Positions 34,501 to 61,500 of a stretch of DNA of 64,000 bases are shown here, piece by piece (within the stretch, counting starts at the first letter, position 1; each line of letters starts with the position of its first letter). Where the stretch lies: NCBI GenBank assembly GCA_964658305.1, contig OZ210884.1, positions 4,774,001 through 4,838,000 on the forward strand, given 5' to 3'. The DNA is from Leptogorgia sarmentosa (Eukaryota). The notes beneath the pieces were generated by a model that did not search any database, was not told where the DNA came from, and worked only from the letters and a program-made list of their open reading frames with translations. A program made the position numbers and the translations under genes.

Positions 34501-37500
34501 ACATATCAGCTTCCTTGAAAAGGTAAAAATCTTCTTTTAGGAGGATTTAAACAGGCTACGTTGGGTGTTGTTGACAATTTGTAGCGTCTTTTTGAAATTG
34601 TAATTGCAAATTCACTATTATACAAACAAGTACCATACGTGCAAACAGCACAAATAAGCTTCATAAAACTGAAAGTCATACATATTAATGCAGATCCTTG
34701 ATTGACAAGAGTATTATATTTACTGATACAAGTTAACCTGCTGAAATATGGTTAAATTATTATAATTATTCTCGTTACCCATGACGATATAGAACATATC
34801 GTTCCTTCTTTTTGCATTGTTCATCACATGTCAAAAATAATAGCCCAGGTTATAAAATTGACCTCAATACTTGTTAAAATTGGCCACTGAGATTATATTG
34901 GTAGTGAATTCAATAACCTGACATTGAGTCTTACGAGGTCTTTCACTGTATCACATACATCTCCTTTAGTCGATGCAACATGCAAAGCAAGAGGTGATCC
35001 ACACTACACCACATTTGATGGAAGACGTTATGACTTCATGGGGAGATGTGAATATGTTCTGGCTAAAGACAGCGTTAACAACACATTTGAAATAAGACAA
35101 GTGAATGAACCTTGTGGAAATGGAGAACCTTCCTGCACAAAATCACTCACCGTGATCTTCCCTGATGTAACTATCGAACTCCTGCGGGGAAGTGTGGTGA
35201 TAAATGGCTCGGAAATTGATTTGTCCTCAACCTATGAAGGTATCTGTTCATTTCAGGCTATCAATTTATTTATAATAAGCAGTTTAGCGAAATATCCTTA
35301 ATTTAACTTTCAAAACTTTCGGTACGGAAGATACTATACCCGTACCTCCAAATGTTGATCATTGAAGGTTGTACCCGTACCTCCAAATGTTGATCAAGAA
35401 GGTTTTTTTTGAATGGAAGATATCTATTTCCTTTTCACGAAATATTTTTTAGAAATGAAATCTTAAAGCATTTTTTTAGAAATACACAGTAATATTCAGT
35501 ATTCATTTTGTACGATTTTGAAATAATCGTTTTTTTTGTGTTTCAAGGACCCGGCGTGAATATTACACAGCCCGAAGCTGGAGAAACTTTAGTAGAAAGT
35601 GATTATGGTGTGACAGTTGAATGGAATAACGTGCATAATGTAAGAGTGACGGTGCTTGGTCGCTATCTGAACAGAACATCAGGTTTGTGTGGCACATTTA
35701 ATGGAGGATCTGGCGATGATTTCTTGGCACCAAATGGAACAGCTTTAGACAATGCAGTAGACTTTGGAAATTCTTGGAAAACTGATCCTGATTGTGAAGA
35801 TGCAACAGATTTGGACCATCCATGTGACACTTATCCTGAAAGAAATGCGAGTGCTGTAGCCAACTGTTCGGCTCTGTTAACTGCTCCCTTTGTGTACTGT
35901 GGAAGCCATATCAATCCAGTATCGGAAGGTTATATCGAAGATTGTGAATATGATGTATGTGGTTGTGATGAAAATCCTACAGTCTGCCTGTGTCAAGCTA
36001 TAGAGGCGTTTGTCAGTGATTGTGCTGCAGAAGGAGTCACCGTTAACTGGCTAAGTGATTCTCGTTATCAACAATGTGGTAAGTGATTGATAAAAAACGA
36101 GCAGTTACATGCATGAATTTCAAATTTCAATTTCATTTTCTAAAATTACTTTTTGGTCGTGTTTCTTGCAACAAATGTCTGATAAATTGTTGGAAGCTAA
36201 GCTATATTATGAAAAAGTTCATTTGAAATCCTGAAAACAGCTACAATTCTCTTTGGATACAGCATGTCTTCAGCTGCACTTCATACTTTGAGAAACTTTA
36301 TTTCAACCCTGAAATACTTTAACGAAATTTTGCTTTGACAACCTACCTTTTAAAATGAATAATTTTGTTTTGGTAACAATTGTATAGTTCCTTATTCCAT
36401 AGGGGATGGGGGGGGGGGGGGGGGAGTGAATTTACGTACTAACACAAATTGCCATTAAACATTAAGCTACTCCATGTGCCAGTGCTCCATGTTTCAACGG
36501 TGGTACTTGTTCAAATGACGGACCATCGTCATTCTCTTGCTCATGTCCCGTTGGATATACTGGTGTCCGCTGTGAAATCGAAGGTAAGCTGTTATAAGGT
36601 TGAAAAAGCGGGGTTCTGTAATTCCTGATAGACTTTAAATATTTCCTATCTACATAAATGAAACTTGCAAACATGTATATATTTTTAATCTTCTTAGTGC
36701 TTAGTTGCGCTGACTTAACTTGTGGGGAAAATGAAGTTTGTGTCACTACCGACGATACGTTTCAATGTGTTTGCCATCCTGATTACGAAGGAGAAAATTG
36801 CCAAAACGAAGGTTGGTGTCACTGATGATGGCCAAATGATGGCATTGAAACCAGTATTAAAAGCAATTATTATAGCATACATGTTTACACACAAACGCTG
36901 TTAGAGGCCCATTGTTAAAATCATTATGATTTCAACTAAGGCCTATTTTTATAATCTTCCAATCGATTTTATAGTTTATGCAACATGCAAAGCAACAGGT
37001 GATCCTCATTACACCACATTTGATGGAACACGTTTTGACTTCATGGGTAAATGTGAATATGTTCTGGCAAAAGACGTTGTGAACAATACCTTTGAAATAC
37101 GCCAAGCAAATGAACCGTGTTTCAGTGGATTACCAACATGCACGAAATCATTAACAGTGATCTTCCCTGCTGTAACTATCGAACTCCGAAGAGGAATGAC
37201 TCTGGTAAATGGTGGAGAGGTTACGTTGCCAGTCTTCGAAGAGGGTAAGAAATATAGAAATGAAGGTGCTATATTATACATGAGAACTTTGCTCTCCCCA
37301 ATTTACCGCCCTTGCAAGATGAATTCACATGGAATTTAAAGTTCCATGGAATTTTACAGATTAAACATTCCCCAGAAGACAACTGTTATTACAATTACCA
37401 CGCAGAAGAAATTGAACCTTCATGTAAAAAGTGCCACCTTACGCTCCTATTTTTCCTGTACAAATTCTTTTCCAATTTGTAACAGAAATTGATATTTTGG

Positions 37501-58500: not shown

Positions 58501-61500
58501 AGCCATATAATATCACTCATTAATATTTCTCTGTTAATTTTTTTCACAGTTCAAGCAACATGTAAAGCAAAAGGTGACCCACACTACACCACATTTGATG
58601 GAATTCTCTATGACTTCATGGGAAGATGTGAATATGTTCTGGCTAAAGTAAACAACACATTTGAAATAAGACAAGTGAATGAACCTTGTGGAAATGGAGA
58701 ACCTTCCTGCACAAAATCACTCACCGTGATTTTCCCGGATGTATCTATCGAACTCGAGCGCGGACGTGTGGTGATAAATGGCTCGGAAATTGATTTGTCT
58801 TCACCGTATGAAGGTACCTGCTTACATCTGATTTTACAGTATTAATAATACGGAATGAAACTTGCGTTTTTGAAGATCCCTTCAAGTGTTTATCACTGTC
58901 AAGAATGATTTCGATAGAAAATGTATTTTTAATTGTTTTGCCGTTTTTTAAACCTTTTCCGACCAGATTTTTTTTGAAATAGAATATTCCAGAAATCCAT
59001 CTAATTTCGCTGTACATGATTAATATATCTAGAAGAAAAACAACCTTTCTTTTAGTACAGTTTGGAAAAACTTACAATTTCTTCTTTGTGTTTCAAGGAC
59101 CCGGCGTGAACGTTACAAAACGAATGGACGGAGAGACAGTAGTAGAAAGTGATTATGGTGTGACAGTTGAATGGAATAACGTGCATAATGTAAGAGTGAC
59201 GGTGCTTGGTCGCTATCTGAACAGAACATCAGGTTTGTGTGGGACATTTAATGGAGAATCTGGCGATGATTTCTTGGCACCAAATGGAACATCTTTAGAC
59301 AATGCAGTAGACTTTGGAAATTCTTGGAAAACTGATCCTGATTGTGAAGATGCAACAGATTTGGACCATCCATGTGACACTAATCCTGAAAGAAATGCGA
59401 GTGCTGTAGCCAACTGTTCGGCTTTGTTAACTACTCCATTTGACAGCTGTACAAGCGTGATTGATCCAGAATCGGAAGGTTATATTGAAGATTGTGAATA
59501 TGATGTATGTGGTTGTGGTGAAAATCCTACAGTCTGTCTGTGTCAAGCTATAGAGGCGTATGTCAGTGATTGTGCTGCAGAAGGAGTGGACATTGACTGG
59601 TTAAACCTTCCTCGTTATCAACAATGTAGTAAGTGATTGTCGTGCGCCATACAGTTGAATATTTTTGTACTTGCACCCATTTTGTGATGTGCAGTTTCTT
59701 TCGGGAAAGGTTTCATGGTCACGGCCGCCATAGATTCTAATTAGGTTTACTTACTTGAAATATTTATTTATTGATAAGGTTCTCCTTGTGCCAGTGCGCC
59801 GTGCTTCAATGGTGGAACCTGTTCAAATGAAGGGCAAACATTCTCCTGCTCCTGCGAAGATGGATTCACAGGTGACCGCTGCGAAACAAGAGGTAAATAT
59901 AATTTGAAATTGGAGAGAGCGATTTTGTTGAACCTTAATTGTATTATGCATGACCGTTACGGTACTATTCTACCGAATATTTATTTCTCAATATTTACAA
60001 GTTGTTACAAACGATTGTCAAATGCTGCTATTACTCAGTGTCTCACGCTTAGTTGAGCTATGTTAGGTATGAGTCTGTTGCGATAGGTGACCCGTAACCC
60101 CTTCTTGTAGTAATCGTGCTCTATTATTGGACATTTGAACAGCGTTTAGCTTCCAGGGTTTTTCTTTGGATACTCCGGATTTCCTTCTTCCTTAAATCCA
60201 GCACTCCGGAACACAAACTCTCGCATACTGACAAGCGTCACCCTCTATAGGAAGTAAGGTTAAATATAGGTGAGACAAACGTCCGAACAAGCTAAGAAAC
60301 ATACGAATTTTCCCGAATTGCTGTCTCATTCTTCCTCTTTCTTTTAAACATTATTATATTGGTAGCATGTCGTAGTATTATACATTGTTGTATCTGAACA
60401 TTCTTTTTTATGTTTTTTACATTAAATCCCTATTTAGTTTTAAGCTGTGATGACTTGACGTGTGCCGAAAATGAAATTTGTGTTGCCGATGGTGAGACAT
60501 ACCGATGTGTTTGTGACTCTGATTACGAAGGAGAGAACTGTGAAAAAATAGGTTGGTGCAGCTATATTCACTTATAATAATCTCTGTCATTAATCATTGA
60601 AGTTGTATTTATTAATGTGTTTCTTACAGGTAAAAATTCTTCTTATTTTTTAACAAAATATTTAGTGCGATCATACATGGTTTCCCTTAGCAAAAGAAAA
60701 GATTTTCTGTATGTCACGTATCTTGCGATCAAAAATCAAAGAAAAAATTGCGTTTCAAATCTTCCTTTTCTTGCTGAAACCAAGTCTTCAAGCAGGTTGC
60801 GCTGGTTATACGTACATTAACGCTCCTAATTTTTATCTTCCTTTTACCTTTTCAAAACCCAAACGCAGTTTCGAAGATAAAAGTCATAGAAATAAAATGA
60901 TTGTAATTGAAACGCAAAAAAGATTTTAGGTCTTGAAAATATTGCATCCGAAATACGCTAAGAAAATTTATCCTTTTGATGAATATTATTTTTCCAAATA
61001 ATTCTGTGTGTTTATCTGTTTTCCTGCAGTTATGAATTGACAACAGTTCAAAATTTAAAGTATAATAATTATTTATTTGCCTGTAGTTGAAGCAACGTGT
61101 AAAGCAAGAGGTGATCCACATTACACCACATTTGATGGAACACGTTTTGACTTCATGGGAAGATGTGAATATGTTCTGGCAAAAGACATTGTGAACAATA
61201 CATTTGAAATACGCCAAGCAAATGAACCGTGTTTCAGTGGATTACCTACTTGTACCAGATCATTGACAGTTATCTTCCCTGGTTTAACTATCGAACTCCG
61301 GAGAGGAGAGATTTTTGTTAATGGTACAGAAGTCACGACGCCAGCTTACTATAACGGTAGGATTTTTTTTTATTTTCAGTTGTTTTTGTTTTAGTTGAGA
61401 TGTACAGTGCACAGTGTAGGTACCTCGGAACAAATGAAAAAAAAATACTGTATACAGAATCATCATGCGAACCCCGTGTCATCATGATGTTGTGGCATTT

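Follow-up and report, generated by a model that had tools for sequence, protein, structure and literature searches.

Homogenisation of repeated sequences is a well-known process and has reportedly been described for spidroins. In mammals, concerted evolution of the KRTAP1 genes is limited to the coding sequence while the flanks diverge, a pattern explained by short tracts and selection (bioRxiv 10.1101/282418). Conversion in the clustered protocadherins of fugu is confined to certain domains of tandem paralogues whose neighbours are diverse (PMC1852091), and long-lasting segmental conversion is known from mammalian gene pairs (PMC2720389). In the MHC (major histocompatibility complex) and immunoglobulin V genes, which undergo conversion plus diversifying selection, variable patches lie in a homogenised frame and alleles arise by segment transfer, the conversion being dependent on homology (Ohta, PMC3966226). 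Here we describe a giant gene in a stretch of 64,000 nucleotides (nt) of the octocoral Leptogorgia sarmentosa (assembly GCA_964658305.1, contig OZ210884.1, positions 4,774,001 to 4,838,000 of the forward strand; hereafter "the window"). The gene is built of tandem units, and we hold, with a probability of roughly 0.78, that repeated ectopic gene conversion has maintained the likeness of the VWD/C8 exons in these old units and has turned them into mosaics.

The locus differs from each of these systems. KRTAP1 copies are separate genes, whereas in the window a single gene holds the copies as exons, just some of the exon classes are affected, and some tracts run into introns. In the fugu protocadherins the GC content at third codon positions (GC3) is raised in the converted regions, which are uniform (over 99%), whereas in the window GC3 is not raised and dimorphic islands recombine. 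Unlike for MHC and immunoglobulin V genes, no ligand, immune role or significant ratio of nonsynonymous to synonymous substitution rates (dN/dS) above 1 is demonstrated for the window gene. Matches in the PDB point to FCGBP, zonadhesin and the gel-forming mucins, which are also tandem VWD-C8 assemblies, and the GDPH motif is the site of self-cleavage in FCGBP (PMC10880436). However, identity to these proteins is about 31-37%, EGF takes the place of TIL after C8 in the scanned U1 exons, LRP-type propellers stand between the VWD pairs, and the modelled part has no PTS mucin domain. The gene is apparently undescribed: no study of this octocoral family was found in the literature searched, and the available part of the Corallium skeletome paper (PMC7853314) names no such protein, which its supplements could list.

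The window contains part of one giant spliced, repeat-built gene. In our splice model, 52 exons on the forward strand between 28359 and 64000 join into 4,403 codons without a stop (Table 1). Contigs of run X8 join exons across four of the modelled introns, a sign of a spliced transcript, although X8 is not recorded as an RNA run. Each of the four 12-exon units (U1-U4) carries VWD-C8-EGF twice, then an LRP-type propeller and EGFs. Pfam scans of the U1 exons returned VWD, C8 and EGF; the propeller (Y) exons received no Pfam name (best E value 0.012), and their profiles matched LRP2, LRP4 and LRP6 in the PDB. The GDPH motif was present in all nine VWD domains.

Table 1. Coordinates of the gene, its units and the exon features discussed in the text (positions in the window).
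Feature	Position	Strand	Remarks
Giant multi-exon gene	20056..64000	+	3' end beyond window; 5' end not fixed
Upstream part, two propeller exon pairs and EGF exons	20056-27656	+	
Unit U0	28359..34430	+	One diverged VWD-C8, EGF, propeller, three EGF exons
Unit U1	34970..41808	+	12 exons: A1 A2 E1 E2 B1 B2 E3 Y1 Y2 C1 C2 E4
Unit U2	42460..49795	+	12 exons
Unit U3	49991..57912	+	12 exons
Unit U4	58550..64000	+	Truncated by window end within Y1
First 90 coding nt of VWD exon (U1 A1)	34972..35061	+	With GDPH
GACAGC in A1 of U1	35068..35073	+	Also in U2 (42558-42563); missing in A1 of U3 and U4
A2 of U1, type a-a-a	35548..36078	+	Blocks 35562-35589, 35642-35786, 35874-36051
A2 of U2, type b-b-b	42821..43351	+	Blocks 42835-42862, 42915-43059, 43147-43324
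A2 of U3, type a-b-a	50956..51486	+	b-type middle 51050-51194
A2 of U4, type b-a-b	59098..59628	+	a-type middle 59192-59336
U1/U2 shared tract: intron sequence, E2, E2-B1 intron, B1	36617..37261	+	43985-44648 in U2, 88%
Y1+Y2 of U1, LRP-type beta-propeller	38529..40005	+	Also 47208-48361, 54827-56010

The units are old tandem duplicates, and their VWD/C8 exons show the signature of exon-limited concerted evolution. The proportion of synonymous differences (pS) between units was 0.049-0.278 in A1, A2, B1 and B2, compared to 0.564-0.833 in the propeller exons Y1/Y2 (0.46-0.90 when C1 and C2 were included); the EGF exons E1-E4 were intermediate (0.14-0.83). Y1+Y2 were not homogenised, with a DNA identity of 64-69% between units, and neither was U0 homogenised with U1-U4. 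Among 54 homologous intron pairs, 45 aligned no better than shuffled sequence, three barely better and six clearly; one of the six was an interspersed repeat, and the rest were tracts running on from exons. Some shared tracts reached 28-60 nt into introns. Comparison with other species gave the same contrast. Y2 of U1 was 68% identical to Dendronephthya, compared to 61% to U2 and 60% to U3, while the A2 copies were 83-92% alike mutually and 69-73% identical to Paramuricea and Dendronephthya, so that paralogous A2 copies resembled each other more within the species than between species. In the tree, the window A2 copies and four close outside copies formed one clade (support 100/99); the monophyly of groups cl3, cl4 and cl6 is circular, as these are 90% clusters, while the grouping of window against Dendronephthya copies is not. 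Within the VWD exons, the first 90 nt were also alike between A and B modules, with 24-30 of 30 nt identical per bin, compared to 13-24 in most bins further 3'. This confinement of homogenisation to VWD/C8 within otherwise ancient units, which is independent of how the middle block of A2 is phased, was missed by the initial annotation and is a stronger signal than the A2 blocks on which that annotation was built.

The initial annotation had proposed a patchwork of segments among the four A2 exons, which encode the 3' half of VWD plus C8. All four exons are 531 nt long with AG/GT ends and are in frame, and every motif it listed was found in its place on the forward strand. The 46 informative sites divided into 33 that pair U1 with U3 (coding positions 13-40 and 325-502), 11 that pair U1 with U4 and form one contiguous stretch (93-237), and two single bases that pair U1 with U2 (283 and 511). 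The 37 codon labels fell into five runs, and as few runs were obtained in 0 of 100,000 permutations (p about 1e-5). In clonal-tree simulations (20,000 for each of four rate settings), at least 11 minority sites arose in 0 of 80,000; the two most rate-variable settings were lenient, their simulated divergence being below that observed. A GENECONV-style test detected A2 tracts between U1 and U3 (p=0.0003), U2 and U3 (p=0.0001) and U2 and U4 (p=0.04), a synonymous-only A1 tract between U3 and U4 (p=0.001), and more tracts in B1 and B2. Runs test, simulations and shared tracts agreed that no single duplication tree fits, as had been claimed, and the tracts, the runs test and the likeness of the A2 copies relative to other species indicated that sequence moved between repeats.

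All three possible pairings of the units had been reported within this exon. The U1/U3 and U1/U4 pairings were strong in A2, but U1/U2 was weak there and came instead from A1 (6 of 9 sites plus an indel), E2 (10 of 10) and B2 (13 of 16). The indel is the 6-bp deletion said to be limited to U3 and U4, which we recovered at coding positions 97-102 of A1. The DTYP/DTNP split is present, but it consists of one base and is compatible with homoplasy; two sites of the U1+U2 type arose by homoplasy in 1.4-10% of the simulations. That split is also the kind of site expected if no exchange took place and purifying selection with recurrent substitution at tolerant positions mimicked the blocks. In line with such an origin, the differences cluster where species vary (15 of 26 vs 36 of 149, p=0.002). 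However, homogenisation extends to the synonymous sites, which trace out these blocks too, codon states defined by more than one base are shared in exact form, and the simulated clonal trees did not reach the observed minority sites. The synonymous sites largely refute this explanation, which we regard as scarcely credible.

The blocks recur in copies outside the window. Our read evidence consists of assembled contigs of four of the 16 runs listed, including X1, X5 and X8, in which contig depth is a rough guide only and not a copy number. Unique X1 pieces of up to 3,285 nt showed 0 differences from the window. The X1 depths of block 3 were 665 for the a type, 370 for the b type and 1,087 for a third type, c, compared to 77-139 for unique pieces, which suggests roughly 10-20 A2 copies in total, four of them in the window. 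Because further A2 copies exist outside the window, these four do not suffice to tell donor from recipient. The c type was found in all four runs examined, and read variants match it; among the outside types it is the one matched to reads. Among 74 exon-sized relatives from a protein search, seven proteins, which belong to the two closest clusters, bear window-like blocks. P0174 and P0244-P0246 are of the c type, reading a-b-b in the three (P0174, P0244, P0246) in which block 1 is present, while P0173, P0242 and P0243 are of the b-b-a type; six of the eight possible three-block combinations were seen. The c-type copies carry the LNLP tail of U4 A2 together with the intron start of U3. In the four-gamete test, blocks 1 and 3 gave the complete set from U1, U2, the c type and P0173, however the middle block is phased, and mosaicism at the level of the family is therefore independent of that phasing.

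In addition, the E4-A1, A1-A2 and A2-E1 introns of U3 (49650-51900) share about 95% identity with a high-depth family of outside copies (X1 contig depth 450-1,520 vs about 100-135). These copies may have arisen by a recent tandem expansion, located in another place or collapsed during assembly.

The outside copies did not bear out the earlier description of the segments as cassettes. Block 2 is broken internally in P0173, P0174 and P0244-P0246, where YNRKPEDDF is joined to NSWKTEP, and block 3 in P0173 and P0242, where YCGSHINPV is joined to the AYVSDC..GVDID tail; tract ends are thus variable. Programmed cassettes were not supported, with no fixed segment boundaries seen and blocks 2 and 3 broken in outside copies, although no wider search for recombination signals was made. 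Because breakpoints lie inside blocks and tracts enter introns, the exchange appears to be homology-driven and DNA-templated rather than a cassette system. Conversion mediated by complementary DNA was rejected, as tracts enter introns and no intron was lost.

Several observations weigh against repeated conversion as we describe it. The 12 synonymous informative sites of A2 alone gave a runs-test p of 0.053, and the informative sites of B2 were unclustered (p=0.64). GC-biased conversion was not seen, since GC3, which is commonly but not necessarily raised by conversion, was not higher in converted exons (A2 0.26-0.27, Y 0.33-0.42). Nor is it their length that accounts for the exons that convert, as A1/B1 (264-270 nt) are shorter than the Y exons (365-388 nt). 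The outside sequences may be chimeric, and their species is assigned from identity. Conversion and double unequal crossover are indistinguishable in these data. Moreover, no single read spans the U3/U4 block junctions, whose identical stretches of 45-55 nt cannot be phased by contigs or 31-mers, and the reciprocity of the a-b-a and b-a-b exons is also what mis-phasing would produce.

The last points bear on an assembly or polishing swap of the middle blocks, under which the four copies would in truth be a pair of a-type exons and a pair of b-type exons. The reciprocity is exact, U3 and U4 are identical over 52 and 55 nt flanking the block, and our evidence comes from contigs rather than raw or long reads. 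On the other hand, the a-to-b junction of U3 also occurs in c-type copies of other samples, namely a 382-nt X5 contig that passes from an a-type block-1 end through YNRKPE into a b-like block 3, and P0174, P0244 and P0246. Each copy has private substitutions, and X1 includes one piece that joins U3's a-type end with the intron of that unit and another in which U4's b-type tail is linked with E1 and E2. A swap would also leave standing the conflict with A1, E2 and B2 and the pS contrast; we consider it unlikely, and a local swap of this kind could coexist with real exon-limited homogenisation.

Unequal crossing-over within exons, combined with duplication and loss of whole units, would make non-reciprocal conversion unnecessary. 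The propellers of Dendronephthya units, too, are 85-98% alike, the c-type copies have U3 introns at high depth, and the E1-E2 and E2-B1 introns are common to U1 and U2. But recent whole-unit exchange would carry propellers and introns along, and in comparisons among U1-U3 these are close to saturation and for the most part cannot be aligned. The propeller regions of U2 and U3 are at single-copy depth in X1, and internal blocks require two crossovers within 200 nt. As the sole process, unequal crossing-over is thus very unlikely in our judgement. Because of the c-type family and the whole-unit identity in Dendronephthya, it likely acts besides conversion, and it would have made the near-identical c-type copies.

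Under repeated ectopic conversion, exchange would take place between out-of-register copies, with tract lengths between tens and a few hundred bases. Purifying selection may hold the VWD/C8 frame alike enough for homologous repair templated on sister exons, while the propeller exons and introns would have dropped below an identity threshold and escaped. The variable islands (the N-terminal strand, the FNG/YNR segment and the C8 inter-helix segment) would travel as passengers, and a tract that starts in conserved flanks and crosses an island would leave the block pattern.

Among named proteins, those nearest to the window gene come from Paramuricea clavata (71%) and Dendronephthya gigantea. The D. 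gigantea 'IgGFc-binding protein-like' proteins P0009 and P0010 and P. clavata P0001 have the same unit order with a period of about 1,015 residues, and they are likely orthologues of the window gene. In P0009/P0010, whole units including the propeller are homogenised (85-99% alike), whereas in the window this applies to VWD/C8 only. PF01826 was not found on P0001-P0004, P0009 or P0010. The C-terminus of P0010 consists of an EGF run, SEA, EGF and a hydrophobic segment. By analogy with these Dendronephthya relatives and FCGBP, the window gene likely encodes a huge extracellular, probably membrane-anchored glycoprotein that would cleave itself at GDPH. A signal-peptide candidate near 19075-19150 was dropped, having no in-frame Met. 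Dendronephthya P0002, which has the same modules, terminates (residues about 960-1127) in a hydrophobic segment and a tail that bears several tyrosine motifs, whereas P0010 has the SEA-bearing end. Two kinds of C-terminus may thus exist in the family, one of them signalling. The AlphaFold model of P0002 was weak overall (mean predicted local distance difference test score, pLDDT, 63; predicted template modelling score, pTM, 0.45), with a confident all-beta propeller and C8 helices and a block-2 region under pLDDT 50. The fold search matched mucin/VWF and LRP chains only.

The residues that vary among the window copies are those that vary among the paralogues of other octocorals (19 of 28 vs 33 of 136, p=2e-5). 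At 52 codons picked from other species' paralogues, U1 and U2 differed by 22.5 nonsynonymous and 2.5 synonymous changes (proportion of nonsynonymous differences, pN, 0.188; pS 0.068), compared to 5 and 12 at the remaining codons (pN 0.019, pS 0.171). The contrast between the two sets was significant (p=0.0002), while the excess of pN over pS itself had p=0.04-0.13, depending on rounding and test. In the P0002 model, the block-3 island lies between the C8 helices, on a short helix and loop. These figures hint at diversifying selection on the islands without proving it; relaxed constraint and diversifying selection both fit.

Repeats of other kinds also occur in the gene. Very high-copy repeats lie in the introns on either side of U3 E4 (57075-58847; X1 contig depth 33,000-59,000), and additional shared repeats near 45409-45527, 52822-52961 and 25786-25956. 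A 94-nt piece of a propeller exon (24327-24420) is copied with 85% identity into the next intron (24621-24713), and the U4 E3-Y1 intron holds a 43-nt inverted repeat pair (91%; 63475-63517 and 63786-63828) that resembles small-transposon ends. Exons of another gene lie at 6069-12714 on the forward strand, where coiled-coil exons come after a low-complexity Pro/Gln/Ser stretch; the sole domain match was weak (ERM_helical, E value 0.0096).

The gene provides a clean example, internal to one gene, of a partial escape from concerted evolution, in which adjoining exons have opposite histories. Together with the whole-unit homogenisation in Dendronephthya, it makes identity-threshold and selection models comparable across octocorals. 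Such exons, like collapsed assemblies, yield misleading trees and copy counts. It is conceivable, if doubtful, that this giant cell-surface protein forms a combinatorial surface-diversity system, in which selected variants of VWD/C8 segments would be recombined by conversion among 10-20 exon copies into binding faces that differ between colonies and meet microbes, symbionts or non-self tissue. If the islands are under diversifying selection and differ between colonies, the gene would be a candidate coral recognition receptor.

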